64,000 nt of DNA from a bacterium. Its GTDB lineage: Bacteria > UBA10199 > 2-02-FULL-44-16 > JAAZCA01. The notes below the pieces were generated by a model that had not been told where the DNA came from, ran no database searches, and was given only the letters and a program-made list of their open reading frames with translations. Positions 44,144 to 49,426 of this stretch are shown in pieces; within the stretch, counting starts at the first letter, position 1, and the number at the start of each line of letters is the position of its first letter. The stretch is taken from positions 64,001 to 128,000 of the forward strand of contig CAXXGI010000003.1 of the NCBI GenBank assembly GCA_963674695.2, read 5' to 3'. A program made the translations under genes and the position numbers.

Positions 44144-44536
44144 ATGCGACGCAAGATACTGAAATCAAAGATTCATCGGGCGGTCGTGACCGATGCCGAT
44201 CTCAACTATGAGGGGTCGATCACCATCGACCGAAACCTCATGGATGCGGCCGATCTCGTTGAATATGAAGCGGTTTATGTCTGGGATGTTACCAACGGTC
44301 AGCGGTTGATGACCTATGCCATCGAGGGGCCGCGCGGTTCGGGCACGGTAGCGATGAACGGCGCCGCGGCGCACCTGATCCGAGCAGGTGATGTCGTCAT
44401 CATCGGGAGCTATGCCGATTATGACGAAGCGGAACTCGTCGATCACCGCGTCCGCAAGGTCTTCGTCGACGAGAAGAACAACATCCGCCAGTCAGGCGAG
44501 AAAAGCCAGTCAGGCCAGTCAAGCCAGTCAGGTTGA
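44144..44536 (+). CDS. panD: Aspartate 1-decarboxylase
   Basis: [16 protein letters not shown]|SITID, NG.R..TY, NGAAA; repeat-derived C-terminal tail. Confidence 0.95.
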
Positions 44537-44690
44537 CAGCCAACGAGAATCGTAGCCTGACTAGCCTGACTAGCCTGACTAGCCTGACTAGCCTGACTAG
44601 CCTGACTAGCCTGACTAGCCTGACTAGCCTGACTAGCCTGACTAGCCTGACTAGCCTGACTAGCCTGACTAGCCTGACTAGCCTGACTGG
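44488..44690. repeat. Inverted nonamer tandem-repeat element with a perfect TAGCCTGAC x15 array
   Basis: Left arm CCAGTCA(G/A)G units in the panD 3' end; right arm TAGCCTGAC x15 at 44553-44687. Confidence 0.95.
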
Positions 44691-44699
44691 CGGCCTTTT

Positions 44700-45299
44700 A
44701 TGGAAATCCTCATCTACGACATCCCCGAAGAGGGGCTCGATATCAGCGCCAGCCAGGCCGATGCCTGGTTTGTCGACATCGTGCGTGAGGTCTTCGGCGA
44801 ATCCTATGAAAAAGGGGATTCCGCCCGTCTGGCCCTCCACATCGACCGGTATGAGGAGAACATCAATATCGGGGGAACCGTCGAGATGGGCCTGCATCAC
44901 ACCTGTGATCGTTGCCTGGAGGGCTTTTCGGAGTCGTGCACCATGCCGATCCACGCCGTTTTGGCTCCGCTCTATGAGAATATGCGCCAGCGCGACCGTG
45001 AATCCGGGCTGGAGGTCGAGCTCGTACGCGAGGACCTGGAATTTACCTTTTATGAAGGGGATCGCTTCGATCTGGACGAGATCCTCCAGGAGCAGATGCT
45101 GTTGGCAAAGCCCATGAAATACCTCTGTCGCCAGGACTGCAAAGGTCTGTGTCAGCGCTGCGGGGCCGACCTCAACAAGGTGGGGGGCTGCACCTGCCGG
45201 GAGGAAACGGTCGATCCCCGGTGGGAGGCGCTCAAGGGCGTGCAGATCGAAGCGCCGGCCGGTGGGCCATCCTCCGATAAAAAACGCAGAAGAGATTGA
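44700..45299 (+). CDS. yceD: DUF177/YceD family protein
   Basis: CDRCL, P.K.LC..DCKGLC..CG.DLN...C.C....DPRW.AL; upstream of rpmF. Confidence 0.9.
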   Translation: MEILIYDIPEEGLDISASQADAWFVDIVREVFGESYEKGDSARLALHIDRYEENINIGGTVEMGLHHTCDRCLEGFSESCTMPIHAVLAPLYENMRQRDRESGLEVELVREDLEFTFYEGDRFDLDEILQEQMLLAKPMKYLCRQDCKGLCQRCGADLNKVGGCTCREETVDPRWEALKGVQIEAPAGGPSSDKKRRRD

Positions 45300-45351
45300 C
45301 ATCGAAGGCCTTTTTCCGCTAGGACAGAGCGCCTTTTGAAAGGAGTTCACC

Positions 45352-45537
45352 GTGGCCGTTCCCAAGAGAAGACATTCCAAGGGGCGTCGTGATCAGCGAC
45401 GCGCCGCCAATTCGAAGCTCGCCACACCGAGCCTCTCCACCTGTCCGCAGTGCAAGCGGCCGAAGATGCCGCACCGGGTCTGTATCCAGTGCGGGTTCTA
45501 TAAGGGTCGTGAAGTGATCAAGCAGGTCTCAGCGTAG
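45352..45537 (+). CDS. rpmF: 50S ribosomal protein L32
   Basis: [18 protein letters not shown]...K.PHRVC..CG.Y.GR. Confidence 0.96.
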
Positions 45538-45551
45538 GTGGAGAACCAACG

Positions 45552-45797
45552 GTGATTGCTGACGAAAAAGAAAACCGCGTGCGTGAAATCATCGGCGAGC
45601 AGTTGGGCGTTTCCGTCGATGAGGTCGCGCTCGACTCCTCTTTTTCCGGTGAGCTCGGCGCGGATACCCTCGATCGCATCGAGCTGGTTCTGGCATTGGA
45701 GGAGGAGTTCGATCTCGAAATAACCGAAGAGGATGCTGACCACCTCAAGAACGTCCAGGACGCCGTCGACCTCGTGGCGCGCCGGACCTCCGCGTAA
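45552..45797 (+). CDS. acpP: Acyl carrier protein with Thr at the phosphopantetheine site
   Basis: RV.EII.EQLGV...EV....SF..ELGADTLD.IELV.ALEEEF..EI..EDA.....VQDA. Confidence 0.85.
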   Translation: MIADEKENRVREIIGEQLGVSVDEVALDSSFSGELGADTLDRIELVLALEEEFDLEITEEDADHLKNVQDAVDLVARRTSA

Positions 45798-45806
45798 GGA
45801 TCGATC

Positions 45807-46238
45807 ATGCGCATCGCGCTCGCTTCCGATCACGCCGGCTTTTCTCTCAAGACATTCCTGACTCACTATCTGCAATCGGCTGGGCATGAGGTGCGCGATT
45901 TTGGTGCGCCTGCTGGAGATCGGTTCGATTATCCGGACTTTGCGCATCCTGCGGCGCGCGCGATCGCCGCGGGCGAGTGTGATCGCGGCATCTTCATCTG
46001 TGGCAGTGGCATCGGCATGTGTATGGTGGCCAATCGCACGCCGGGCGTGCGCGCCGTGGTGATGCACGATGCCTTCGACGCTGAGATGAGTCGGCGCCAC
46101 AACAACGCCAACGTCGCCTGCTTCGGCGCGCGCGCGATGGAAGAAACGGAAATGCTCCGCCTCATCGACCTGTTTCTGGTCACCCCCTTCGAAGGCGGTC
46201 GGCATGAGGAGCGCGTGGCAAAAATCGACAAGCCGTGA
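45807..46238 (+). CDS. rpiB: Ribose 5-phosphate isomerase B
   Basis: SDHAG, DYPD, ICGSGIGM, SRRHNNAN, FEGGRH. Confidence 0.95.
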   Translation: MRIALASDHAGFSLKTFLTHYLQSAGHEVRDFGAPAGDRFDYPDFAHPAARAIAAGECDRGIFICGSGIGMCMVANRTPGVRAVVMHDAFDAEMSRRHNNANVACFGARAMEETEMLRLIDLFLVTPFEGGRHEERVAKIDKP

Positions 46239-46273
46239 CTCGTGAAGCATAAACTGCAAAACCGGAGGTTATC

Positions 46274-46393
46274 AGATTGCTGACAAAGTCTTTTCGCGCT
46301 GTCATTCCCGCGAAAGCGGGAATCTCGATCATCAGGACACATCGAGATCCCCGCTTTCGCGGGGATGACAACGGCTGGGTTTGTCAGCATCCT
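46274..46393. mobile_element. MITE-like element, family B, flanked by a 16 bp direct repeat
   Basis: TIR AGATTGCTGACAAA / TTTGTCAGCATCCT; internal GTCATTCCCGCGAAAGCGGGAATC core; CAAAACCGGAGGTTAT at 46257 and 46394. Confidence 0.8.
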
Positions 46394-46409
46394 CAAAACC
46401 GGAGGTTAT

Positions 46410-47651
46410 ATGATTTTGGAAGAACTCAAGACATTCGATCCTGAAATTGCCGCTTCTCTTCGAGACGAGATCGAGCGCCAGGAGGAGGGGCTCGAGCTCA
46501 TCGCTTCGGAGAACTTCGTCTCCCGCCGCGTCATGAACGCGATGGGGAGCGTGATGACGAACAAGTATGCCGAGGGGTATCCGGGAAAGCGCTACTACGG
46601 CGGCTGCGAATTCGTCGATGTGGCCGAGGACCTCGCGCGCGAGCGGGCGAAAAAACTCTTCGGCTGCGATCACGCCAACGTCCAGCCGCATTCCGGCAGT
46701 TCCGCAAACCTGGGTGTCTACTTCGCCGCCATCAAGCCCGGCGACACGATCATGGGGATGAACCTCTCGCAGGGCGGGCATCTCACGCATGGTTCCCCCG
46801 TCTCCATCTCGGGTTCCTATTTCAACGTCGTGCATTACGGCGTCGATGTCGAGACGGAGCTGATCGATTTCGATGAGGTGCGTCGTCTCGCGTGCGAACA
46901 CAAGCCGAAGCTCATCGTCTGCGGTGCGTCGGCCTACGCCCGCGACATCGACTTCAAGAAATTCCGCGAGATCGCCGACGAGGTGGGAGCGCTTGTCATG
47001 GCGGACATCGCGCATCCGGCGGGTCTGGTCGCCACGGGTCTGCACACCTCTCCCGTTCCGCACTGCCAGTTCGTCACGACCACCACGCACAAGACGTTGC
47101 GTGGGCCGCGCGGCGGGATGATCATGTGCGAGGAGCAGTATGCCAAGGCGATCGACAAGGCGATCTTTCCCGGCCTGCAGGGCGGTCCGCTCATGCACGT
47201 CATCGCGGCCAAGGCGGTTGCCTTCCTCGAGGACTTGCAGCCCGAGTACAAGGCGTACTGCCAGCAGGTCATCACGAACGCGCGGGCGCTGGCCGCGGCG
47301 CTGGCCGATCGGAAGCTGCGCATCGTCACCGGTGGCACCGACACGCATCTCTTCCTCGTCGACCTGACCGAGACGGGGCTCACCGGCAAGCAGGCCGAGG
47401 CCGCCCTCGGGGTCGCCGGCATTACGGTCAACAAGAACACCATTCCGCGCGAGACGCGCTCGCCCTTTGTCACCACCGGCATTCGCCTCGGGACGCCGGC
47501 GCTCACCACCCGTGGCATGACGGCAAACGAGATGGCCATCGTCGGCAACTGGATCGCCGATGTGCTCGGCGACATCGAAAACGAACAGAAGCAGATCGCC
47601 ATCAAAGCCGAGATCAAAAAACTCTGTGAAGGCTTTCCGTTGTACAGATAA
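46410..47651 (+). CDS. glyA: Serine hydroxymethyltransferase
   Basis: [42 protein letters not shown]. Confidence 0.97.
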
Positions 47652-47654
47652 GGC

Positions 47655-47750
47655 GTTCGATAGTCCGTCAGTTCGATAGTTCGATAGTCCAATCATAATC
47701 CAAGGGCCACGAACCGTCGAACCGTCGAACCATCGAATCATCGAACTATG
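47655..47750. repeat. Inverted octamer tandem-repeat element
   Basis: GTTCGATA-type x4 / GAACCRTC-type x5; last unit GAACTATG contains the nrdR start codon. Confidence 0.85.
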
Positions 47751-48209
47751 AAATGTCCCTTCTGCCCACAGGTTGAGAGCAAGGTGATCGATTCGCGCGT
47801 CTCCAAGGATGGCGCGATCATTCGCCGTCGTCGCGAGTGCGAGGGGTGCGCGAAGCGTTTCACGACGTACGAACGCGTCGAGGAACCGTTGCCGGCGGTG
47901 GTCAAAAAGGATGGGCGGCGCGAGACCTTCGACCGCATGAAGATCGTCGGCGGCATTCGCAAGGCATGCGAGAAGAGGCCCGTCTCCACGGCCACGATCG
48001 AGGAGGTCGTCGACCGGATCGAGCGCTGGGCGCAGGAACTCAGCGAGGCCGAGATCGCCAGCGCCGCCATCGGTGAACGCGTCATGGCGGAACTCCACGG
48101 GCTCGATGAAGTGGCCTATGTGCGTTTCGCCTCGGTCTACCGCTCCTTCAAGGATATCAACGAATTCATGTCGGAGCTCTCGGACTTACTCAAAAAAGAC
48201 AGCGGATAA
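47748..48209 (+). CDS. nrdR: Transcriptional repressor NrdR
   Basis: [35 protein letters not shown]. Confidence 0.97.
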
Positions 48210-48331: not shown

Positions 48332-49426
48332 ATGAAAAAGCAGGAATCCTACATGCGGTGGGCGATCGCGTTGGCGCTCGAGGGCCAGGGATTGACGTCG
48401 CCCAACCCGATGGTCGGTGCGCTCATCGTCAAGAATGATCGCATCGTCGGCGAGGGGTACCACCGCAAAGCGGGAGGACCGCATGCGGAGATCGTGGCGC
48501 TTCACCAGACGGGCGGTCGAGCGCGCGCGGCCGATCTCTATGTGACGCTCGAGCCCTGTGCCCATAAAGGGCGTACGCCACCGTGCGTCGACGCGATTAT
48601 CGCCGCCGGCGTTCGGCGCGTCATCATCGGCACGCGGGACCCGAATCCGATGGTGAACGGCCGAGGTATCCGTCGACTTCGTCGTGCTGGTATCGCGGTT
48701 ACCGTCGGTGTGCTCGAACAGAATTGCCGCTCGATCAACGAGGCCTATAACGCGTTCATCGTTACGGGCAAACCCTTCGTCACCGTCAAGGCGGCGCTCT
48801 CGCTCGATGGAAAGATTGCTGCGGCATCGGGCGATTCCCGTTGGATTACGAATGCCGAATGCCGTCAGTATGTGCATCGCCTGCGCGGACAGGTCGATGC
48901 GGTTCTCGTGGGCGGGGGAACCGTTCGGGCCGATGACCCGCGGTTGACCGTTCGGCTCAAGGGATGGATCGGGCATGAGCCGCGTGCGATCATCGTCGAT
49001 GAAGCCCTCGATCTTTCCCGGAAGGCACGTATCTGGAAGCGCGCGCGTGGACAGGTGATCGTTGCCACGACGATGGCTGCGTCGATTTCGCGGCGGCGCT
49101 GGATCGAACGGCAAGGGCATGCCGTGCTCATCTGCCGGGCCACAGCCGATGGGCGCGTGATGCTCTCGGACCTCATGCGGCGTCTCGGTCGAGAGGGGAT
49201 TTCATCGGTGCTCGTCGAGGGCGGAGGCGAGATCTTCGCCGGATTTTTTCGGAGCAAACTGGTCGGACGTCTGGTTGCATGCATGGCCCCGAAGCTGATC
49301 GGCGGAAAGGGTCTGGATTTTCTGCCGGGAATCTCGCATGCGACGATGCAAAAGGTGCCGTCACTGTCCGACGTGACGATGAAGACCTTCGGTGATAATA
49401 TCGTCGTCGAAGGAAGACTGCGTTGA
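48332..49426 (+). CDS. ribD: Riboflavin biosynthesis deaminase/reductase RibD
   Basis: PNPMVG, HAE, TLEPC.H.G.TPPC, SLDGK, VEGG. Confidence 0.95.
   Translation: MKKQESYMRWAIALALEGQGLTSPNPMVGALIVKNDRIVGEGYHRKAGGPHAEIVALHQTGGRARAADLYVTLEPCAHKGRTPPCVDAIIAAGVRRVIIGTRDPNPMVNGRGIRRLRRAGIAVTVGVLEQNCRSINEAYNAFIVTGKPFVTVKAALSLDGKIAAASGDSRWITNAECRQYVHRLRGQVDAVLVGGGTVRADDPRLTVRLKGWIGHEPRAIIVDEALDLSRKARIWKRARGQVIVATTMAASISRRRWIERQGHAVLICRATADGRVMLSDLMRRLGREGISSVLVEGGGEIFAGFFRSKLVGRLVACMAPKLIGGKGLDFLPGISHATMQKVPSLSDVTMKTFGDNIVVEGRLR

Follow-up and report, generated by a model that had tools for sequence, protein, structure and literature searches.

The gene acp, which lies on the forward strand at 45552-45797 of a 64,000-nucleotide stretch of bacterial DNA (assembly GCA_963674695.2, contig CAXXGI010000003.1, positions 64,001 to 128,000; this whole stretch is called the window in the following), encodes an acyl carrier protein (ACP) of 81 amino acids with Thr at the site where ACPs have a phosphopantetheine-accepting Ser. 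ACP, with its phosphopantetheine arm, is regarded as a universal and essential component of bacteria, and the Ser of its DSL motif as invariant. In this bacterium, acp is the sole ACP gene of the genome, and none of the ACPs recovered from its family has kept the Ser. Comparisons of the respective sequences make it probable that the product of acp is a housekeeping AcpP orthologue that has lost the acceptor Ser, is an obligate apo-ACP, and is kept by selection. It would most likely work by binding proteins as a subunit or regulator.

An AcpP orthologue without the acceptor serine

Translation of the acp open reading frame (ORF), which starts with GTG and is preceded by a GGAG-like ribosome-binding site, gives a protein containing SSFSGELGADTLDRIELVLALEEEFD. 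Its motif ELGADTLDRIE has Thr in place of the Ser expected in the DSL motif, and the corresponding codon, ACC at 45666-45668 on the forward strand, falls into the phosphopantetheine-attachment column (Ser36 in Escherichia coli). The original prediction, made from the letters of this stretch, had read Thr in LGADTLD at this codon, which is borne out by the ORF translation.

The protein matches the PP-binding family PF00550 with 50 bits (cut-off 20.8), the acyl_carrier model TIGR00517 with 84.1 bits (cut-off 70.45), and NF002148 with 87.4 (cut-off 71). Its score of 90 against the equivalog model NF002149 is under the cut-off of 106. In a tblastn comparison it is 57% identical to AcpP from E. coli over 69 residues, and the nearest solved chains by sequence are E. 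coli-type AcpP structures (E ~2e-19). Judged from position and sequence, the acp product is an orthologue of AcpP that lacks the acceptor Ser. Descent and sequence place it in the AcpP family, of which it lacks the defining chemical feature.

Loss of the serine in one family

The comparison covered 93 species genomes from 24 families, which make up both the class and the phylum; the family of the window's genome (G000) comprises 13 of these species genomes. ACPs were read from every genome with a strong match, resulting in 12 sequences from the family and 63 from the rest of the phylum. Genomes G061, G062, and G065 were left out, having only weak ACP matches with the best ones inside ORFs of 900-1000 amino acids. 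All 12 family ACPs have a residue other than Ser at the attachment site, with eight different residues in all: Thr (G000, G003, G007, G012), Asp (G006, G010), Glu (G001), Ala (G002), Gly (G004), Arg (G005), Ile (G008), and His (G009). The respective codons are ACC (three times), ACG, GAT (twice), GAA, GCG, GGG, AGG, ATC, and CAT, and Thr is the commonest residue (4/12). Thus, the concern that the Thr could be private to this assembly does not apply, as the ACPs of the family are non-Ser throughout. From the 13th family genome, which is 78% complete, no ACP was recovered.

In the rest of the phylum, Ser is kept in 62 of the 63 ACPs, the exception being Asn in G026 from another order. The former Ser column has an entropy of 2.75 bits in the family, the highest of the whole alignment, compared to 0.12 bits outside the family. 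Three residues after this site, the column of E. coli T39 is also relaxed in the family. From these sequences, the loss of the Ser is read as a later event of one family, with a second, separate event in G026.

An ACP match is absent from 15 of the 93 phylum genomes, including all genomes of the families f16 (0/4) and f20 (0/2); the only genome of f19 has no match either (0/1). In the genomes of f16 and f20 (G035 and G066-G070; 82-98% complete) neither ACP nor AcpS was found, and G035 retains LipB.

A profile search of 1.84 billion proteins was dominated by giant multi-ACP proteins. Among the 74 ACP domains located in proteins of at most 145 amino acids, 72 have Ser and two do not (P0046 with Arg and P0050 with Ala), both of which are family-like. 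Across the 314 aligned ACP domains from this search, Thr occupies the Ser column in 40. Giant proteins with this feature are P0017, P0041, P0049, P0065, P0066, P0102, P0121, and P0142 (752-4019 amino acids), in which four to six tandem ACP-like domains read LGIDTVKQ. A search of genome contigs with the profile of the ACP alignment returned at least 80 loci of generic proteobacterial and other origin, and the lineage of the window is absent among the matches listed. A search for homologous proteins with the acp product yielded nine matches from 15 candidates.

Purifying selection on the Ser-less ACP

Intact acp ORFs are present in 12 of 12 family genomes with an ACP, across 10 genera. For pairs in which both ACPs are without Ser, the ratio of nonsynonymous to synonymous substitutions (dN/dS, NG86) is 0.11 (G001/G010), 0.21 (G007/G012), 0.16 (G003/G004), 0.20 (G000/G007), and 0.26 (G000/G003). 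The 12 family ACPs share eleven invariant columns (L35, G36, D38, L40, D41, E44, E50, E51, E52, F53, and I57 in their own numbering), including the equivalents of D35, L37, D38, E41, E47, E48, E49, and F50 of E. coli. The acidic columns of helix II (E. coli D35, D38, E41, and E47-49) show no variation across the 12 family sequences and 62 others. These substitution patterns indicate that the Ser-less ACP is still under purifying selection.

Helix II is the surface by which ACPs dock on partner proteins. Because the phosphopantetheine-accepting Ser has been lost, the family ACP would not carry acyl chains. A role in protein binding is suggested by the purifying selection together with the intact acidic helix II, and the Ser-less ACP would bind its partner or partners through this helix. 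Most family members can exist only in the apo state, and eight of them have a residue without a phosphopantetheine-accepting hydroxyl group at this site.

The retained transferase AcpS

The genome encodes an AcpS of 124 amino acids (PF01648, 61 bits) after pdxJ. Its presence, intactness, and high conservation had not been foreseen in the original prediction. PF01648 was found in 83 of the 93 phylum genomes and in 13/13 genomes of the family, compared to 0/4 in f16 and 0/2 in f20. Thus, AcpS and ACP were lost together in f16 and f20 and retained together in the family. Family AcpS sequences have a mean column identity of 79%, family ACPs of 64%, and the mean pairwise identity of RpiB is about 61%. 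The dN/dS of family AcpS is 0.03-0.09.

The AcpS of the window's genome has all residues of the catalytic motif, including the Glu of AAKEA. Going by AcpS of Bacillus subtilis, this Glu binds Mg2+ in phosphopantetheinyl transferases. Gln takes its place in four of the 13 family AcpS, including that of the Thr-bearing G007. These changes are independent, since two genera each contain one species with Glu and one with Gln. In sister families of the same order, the Glu is replaced by Lys, Gln, His, His, His, or Gln in 6/9 AcpS, though the respective ACPs have Ser. Over the order as a whole (families f1-f4; loci L002, L036-L046, L149-L158, and L168-L185), Gln, His, or Lys is found in 10 of 22 AcpS. 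All eight AcpS-type sequences recovered from other orders have Glu at this position; ten further genomes with a longer type of phosphopantetheinyl transferase were left out of this alignment. The strong constraint on a transferase without a visible acceptor may reflect either an unrecognised substrate or activity or an AcpS-ACP pair acting as the functional unit.

Absence of fatty acid synthesis

The genome of 3.03 Mb consists of three contigs and is 100% complete with 0.85% contamination. The absence of fab genes and plsX, which the original prediction had noted for the locus, extends to this whole genome in family searches and tblastn. Family searches found no FabA/Z, FabD, or PlsX in the genome. 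The only matches to ketoacyl synthase (KS; 21 bits) and FabH_C (16 bits, below the cut-off) are both located in a 392-amino-acid ORF that is called a thiolase by Pfam. Tblastn of the genome with 50 proteins from E. coli K-12 gave matches for BamA, a TolC-like protein, CdsA, Dxr, IspU, a PlsB-type protein, two FadD-like ligases, a NifS/IscS-like and an IscU-like protein, LipA, LipB, AcpS, and PdxJ. No match was obtained with single E. coli queries for LpxA/B/C/D/K, FabZ/H/D/F/B/I, AccA/D, and PlsX/Y/C. For FabG, tblastn found only a generic short-chain dehydrogenase/reductase, and FabI gave no match. Such tblastn misses are weak evidence, as the window's own yceD and rpmF were also missed; strong evidence is provided by the family searches only.

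Pfam confirmed an 887-amino-acid glycerol-3-phosphate acyltransferase (GPAT) with the domains Acyltransferase and GPAT_C, a PlsC-type acyltransferase, a 624-amino-acid AMP-binding ligase, and NifU and NifS. Trans-2-enoyl-CoA reductase (Ter), acyl-CoA dehydrogenase, and geranylgeranylglyceryl phosphate (GGGP) synthase were not found in the genome. Reverse or forward β-oxidation was rejected as a source of acyl chains in view of the missing Ter and acyl-CoA dehydrogenase, and archaeal-type ether lipids in view of the missing GGGP synthase. From its gene content, the cell can assemble phosphatidic acid, and neither the synthesis nor the degradation of acyl chains is covered by a recognised route. 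The simplest reading of the acyl-chain source is an import of fatty acids, which the AMP-binding ligases would activate to acyl-CoA for the chains of the membrane. Lipid scavenging, as suggested in the original prediction, fits this gene content of PlsB- and PlsC-type acyltransferases, CdsA, and acyl ligases with no FAS II (type II fatty acid synthesis), acyl-CoA dehydrogenase, Ter, or GGGP synthase found. The predatory or epibiotic life proposed along with it finds no counterpart, as nothing in the analysis shows such a life. In this genome, a single Rel/SpoT homologue (725 amino acids; HD, RelA_SpoT, TGS, and ACT) and a 624-amino-acid AMP-binding acyl ligase are encoded side by side in the same orientation (G000 C3:604757-609546, locus L188).

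LipB is encoded in 38 of 41 relatives, including 11/13 family genomes. Its presence seems to demand octanoyl-ACP. However, LipB from E. coli and LipT2 from mouse are efficient with octanoyl-CoA, and their affinity for apo-ACP is low, with a dissociation constant in the millimolar range (PMC9307952). As LipB accepts octanoyl-CoA, the need for octanoyl-ACP would be removed.

The same picture is found across the phylum. KS matches at E<=1e-20 are present in 22/93 genomes, mostly in ORFs of ~950 to 6,450 amino acids, with seven matches in ORFs of 360-561 amino acids. By this threshold, 71/93 genomes are without KS, and 87/93 are without FabA/Z; the FabA/Z found in 6/93 lie in small clusters with such KS genes. 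One of these regions, G036 C3:14789-19050, comprises two clustered FabA-like genes, a 425-amino-acid KS, a second ACP-like gene, and a phosphopantetheinyl transferase, and looks like a secondary-metabolite or special-lipid module rather than housekeeping fatty acid synthesis. PlsX was found in 0/41 genomes and LpxC in 0/93 phylum genomes. The possibility that other families have retained the Ser for the sake of lipopolysaccharide was rejected, since LpxC is missing from all 93. The Geobacter-like frame of the original prediction was not supported; the genome falls into this phylum-level lineage of 93 species genomes, all of them without an LpxC match.

A comparison of 30 related loci from 18 families of the phylum yielded no match to PlsX, FabH, FabD, FabG, or FabF in any locus. 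As judged from these sequences, the loss of FAS II is ancient and phylum-wide. The original prediction had seen a clean removal of the fab genes on both sides of acp, which does not hold as an event of this organism, as the fab-less order is phylum-wide and 30/30 loci with adjacent L32 and ACP genes are without fab and plsX. The loss of FAS II and the loss of the Ser are thus separate events far apart in time, because the fab-less order includes 62 Ser-keeping lineages.

Alternative explanations

Several points weigh against a selected apo-ACP. The dS of ACP pairs ranges from about 0.7 to >1.7 and is near saturation in several pairs. The ratio of ACP to RpiB p-distances is 1.16 in the family (66 pairs) vs 0.77 outside (351 pairs), which would also agree with a gradual decay. 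Parts of the phylum can dispense with ACP, as f16, f20, and f19 are without a match, so it is not universally essential. The absences of AccA/D, FabI, PlsY, and PlsC (E. coli query) come from single-query tblastn only. In addition, AcpS looks active here, which would be pointless without an acceptor; it is possible that an acceptor escaped detection or that the Thr serves as one. Finally, the S36T variant of E. coli ACP has been reported to be neither a substrate of Aas nor a binder of IscS, a contact which needs Ser36 and the arm (PMC13343975). An apo contact in this family would differ in kind.

A sequencing or assembly error as the origin of the Thr codon is practically excluded. Logan contigs, which are assembled contigs and not raw reads, were compared from three public runs of two samples from one study. 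These independently assembled contigs are identical over the codon, with 0 differences across the surrounding stretch. Contigs X1 and X2 cover 45300-46300 and may be derived from the source sample, and X3 from the second sample covers 45529-45922. Furthermore, Thr occurs in three other species and other non-Ser residues in eight more. The base-call error considered in the original prediction is ruled out by the agreement of the three runs. No RNA datasets are listed as carrying the acp stretch. It is also very improbable that a canonical Ser ACP and a complete FAS II are encoded elsewhere in the genome and that acp is a degenerate paralogue. Nothing was found that would favour this, the absence being provisional in an assembly of three contigs. 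PF00550 has one match in the whole genome, acp itself, and an unfiltered search of 40,797 six-frame ORFs with a hidden Markov model of related ACPs recovered acp with E = 2e-33 and the next best ACP-like ORF with E = 13. KS, FabD, FabZ, FabH, and PlsX are all absent by family search at 100% completeness, 12 related genomes give the same picture, and acp occupies the ancestral acpP position beside rpmF. Thus, the DSL ACP or complete FAS II for which the original prediction had proposed a search was not found in the genome, and acp is its only ACP.

Two further explanations concern the protein itself. If acp were a decaying relic without function, it would be retained only by its position in the rpmF operon and be on the path of the ACP-less families. 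Such a decay would fit the ~1.5-fold faster evolution of ACP relative to RpiB in the family than outside, the failure to find ACP and AcpS in two other families, and the lack of a known binding partner. A relic is unlikely, however, as a neutral 81-codon ORF is expected to break at the dS values given above, and all 12 ORFs are intact across the 10 genera. The dN/dS of 0.11-0.26 was obtained between species both already without Ser, and the eleven invariant columns concentrate on helix II with the former Ser column varying freely. Alternatively, the Thr of the window species and three other family members could be slowly phosphopantetheinylated by AcpS. An acyl-ACP synthetase could then charge the holo-ACP with scavenged fatty acids, to the benefit of LipB and the PlsB/PlsC-type acyltransferases. 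The hydroxyl group of Thr, its status as the commonest residue at the site, the intact AcpS with the AAKEA Glu, and the presence of LipB, the PlsB-type GPAT, the PlsC-type acyltransferase, and two AMP-binding ligases would all be in line with this route. It is nevertheless improbable: Glu, Asp, Asp, Gly, Arg, His, Ile, and Ala in eight members cannot accept the group, and the ACP and AcpS of these members are equally conserved. Moreover, the Thr-bearing G007 has Gln for the catalytic Glu of AcpS, Aas could not acylate the S36T variant in the study cited above (PMC13343975), and LipB can use octanoyl-CoA (PMC9307952).

Candidate partners of a probable apo-ACP

The apo, non-carrier role proposed in the original prediction is the best reading, given Glu, Asp, Gly, Arg, His, Ile, and Ala at the site in relatives and a gene under purifying selection. 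Among the proteins that an obligate apo-ACP may bind, AcpS is quite possible as a partner, being co-retained with ACP, co-lost with it elsewhere, and very strongly conserved. The NifS-type cysteine desulfurase is a rather doubtful candidate, for which E. coli and mitochondria offer precedents, though the arm is required for the bacterial contact. The PlsB-type GPAT, put forward because of the inhibition of E. coli PlsB by apo-ACP, is an unlikely one. The ranking is thus AcpS, NifS-type, and PlsB-type in descending order, and the remaining probability is that of something unrecognised. OpgH, the classical client of apo-ACP, was rejected, as neither OpgH nor OpgG was found by tblastn. MukF/E was rejected on the same grounds.

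A more far-reaching and rather speculative suggestion from the sequence conservation is that ACP and AcpS form a strongly selected, non-catalytic pair, made up of a carrier that is not loadable and a transferase without a substrate to load, in which Gln may replace the catalytic Glu. The complex, which is expected only when AcpS holds CoA, would do something new and possibly report the CoA/acyl-CoA state of a cell depending wholly on fatty acid import.

Comparison with known systems

The protein is similar to AcpP of E. coli in its length, the acidic helix II, the yceD-rpmF neighbourhood, and the cognate AcpS encoded after pdxJ. Unlike E. coli acpP, the gene encodes no acceptor Ser, is not preceded by plsX-fabHDG, and is not followed by fabF. 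In further contrast to E. coli, no FAS II, PlsX, or Lpx enzymes that acp could serve were found in the genome. A Ser-less housekeeping ACP from bacteria was not found in the open-access literature.

The closest parallel is the mitochondrial ACP (mACP) of Apicomplexa. Its Ser has been replaced after the loss of mitochondrial FAS II (Phe in Plasmodium falciparum, Cys/Gly in Toxoplasma), and the protein functions independently of phosphopantetheine by binding the LYR protein Isd11 with Nfs1 (PMC8547962). The authors report Ser-less ACPs only in Apicomplexa and one chromerid. As in the apicomplexan case described there, the Ser has been lost after the loss of FAS II in the compartment or organism, the protein has been retained, and the residue at the site differs between lineages. 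Unlike the apicomplexan system, in which the transferase has been lost according to the same source, AcpS is present in 13/13 family genomes and is under strong constraint. Furthermore, the site varies freely in the family and is not fixed to one new residue, and the gene belongs to a free-standing bacterial genome and not to an organelle. The LYR family PF05347 had no match in this genome nor in any of 14 control genomes, so this search proves nothing. The likeness to apicomplexan mACP is likely convergent, because acp is a bacterial AcpP orthologue by its position on the rpmF side and by similarity.

In E. coli, the contact between ACP and IscS tunes the synthesis of Fe-S clusters and uses D35 and D38 of ACP (PMC13343975). 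Similar to this system, the equivalents of D35 and D38 are invariant in the family, and a NifS-type desulfurase adjoins NifU. At both positions corresponding to R112 and R116 of E. coli IscS, this desulfurase has Lys, according to a reading of the two sequences that relies on the primer table of the same source (PMC13343975).

Two PlsB-related and OpgH-related activities also deserve comparison. Reportedly, from work by Therisod and Kennedy in 1986 and by Keating et al. in 1995, apo-ACP of E. coli is a cofactor of the glucosyltransferase OpgH and an inhibitor of PlsB. Unlike these activities, which are side roles of a protein that is mostly in the holo form, the apo state is obligate in the family described here. 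These activities would show that a bacterial ACP can be active in the absence of its prosthetic group. The genome described here likewise encodes a PlsB-type GPAT, and tblastn gave no match to OpgH or OpgG.

Genomic context

All genes of the block are on the forward strand. It starts with yceD (DUF177; 44700-45299; PF02620, 93.9 bits), followed by rpmF for ribosomal protein L32 (45352-45537; PF01783, 86.1 bits), acp, rpiB for ribose-5-phosphate isomerase B (45807-46238; PF02502, 184.4 bits), glyA for serine hydroxymethyltransferase (46365-47651; PF00464, 561.6 bits), nrdR (47748-48209; PF22811 and PF03477), and ribD (48332-49426; PF01872 and PF00383). The gaps flanking acp amount to 14 bp to rpmF (45538-45551) and 9 bp to rpiB (45798-45806). 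Thus, Pfam matches bear out both the gene order and the short gaps described in the original prediction. Just upstream of the block lies panD (44144-44536, forward strand; PF02261, 160.1 bits), encoding aspartate 1-decarboxylase for the β-alanine step of pantothenate/CoA synthesis. The yceD-rpmF-acp-rpiB-glyA block is common to the related loci of the phylum: the L32 and ACP genes are adjacent in 30/30 loci, RpiB is encoded next in 26/30, and yceD is located upstream in most.

A 9-bp unit, TAGCCTGAC, is perfectly repeated in tandem over 44553-44688 (15.1 copies, 100% matches) between panD and yceD, and a looser 9/18-bp array is located at 44487-44532 within the end of panD. A dispersed palindromic element, translations of which resemble VIPAKAGIS..., is found at ~46270-46400 between rpiB and glyA. 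The same element recurs around pdxJ/acpS (locus L002, G000 C3 ~545,500-546,400). Positions 1-32807 of the window contain two type II secretion/type IV pilus gene sets (T2SSE, T2SSF, pseudopilins, PilM/N/O, and secretin). An affiliation of the phylum with Omnitrophota, Acetothermia/Bipolaricaulota, or Dadabacteria found no support: a paper on Omnitrophota mentions fatty acids once in an unrelated context, and for Acetothermia the absence of both LPS genes and pili is reported, in contrast to the pilus gene sets of the window.

Implications

Annotation pipelines will name this protein 'acyl carrier protein' and may thereby credit the organism with lipid synthesis beyond its abilities, which is a warning for genome annotation. 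In building their membranes, the cells of this lineage have to rely on acyl chains for which no synthesis route is recognised, and these membranes comprise an outer one containing BamA, TolC-like proteins, and secretins. From LpxC in 0/93 genomes and the two pilus/type II secretion sets of the window, the lineage appears to have outer-membrane machinery without lipid A.

The Ser-less ACP of this family is a parallel of independent origin to the apicomplexan mitochondrial case, and the retained transferase points to an unrecognised activity of AcpS, either alone or paired with ACP. If such a pair exists, it would be the first bacterial ACP system that is independent of phosphopantetheine, and it would be located in a phylum with outer-membrane machinery and without FAS II or lipid A. 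In model bacteria, carrier-independent roles of ACP are hard to separate from lipid synthesis, acpP being essential. A whole family with a sole, unmodifiable, and conserved ACP would thus be a natural experiment that isolates the carrier-independent functions of this protein.

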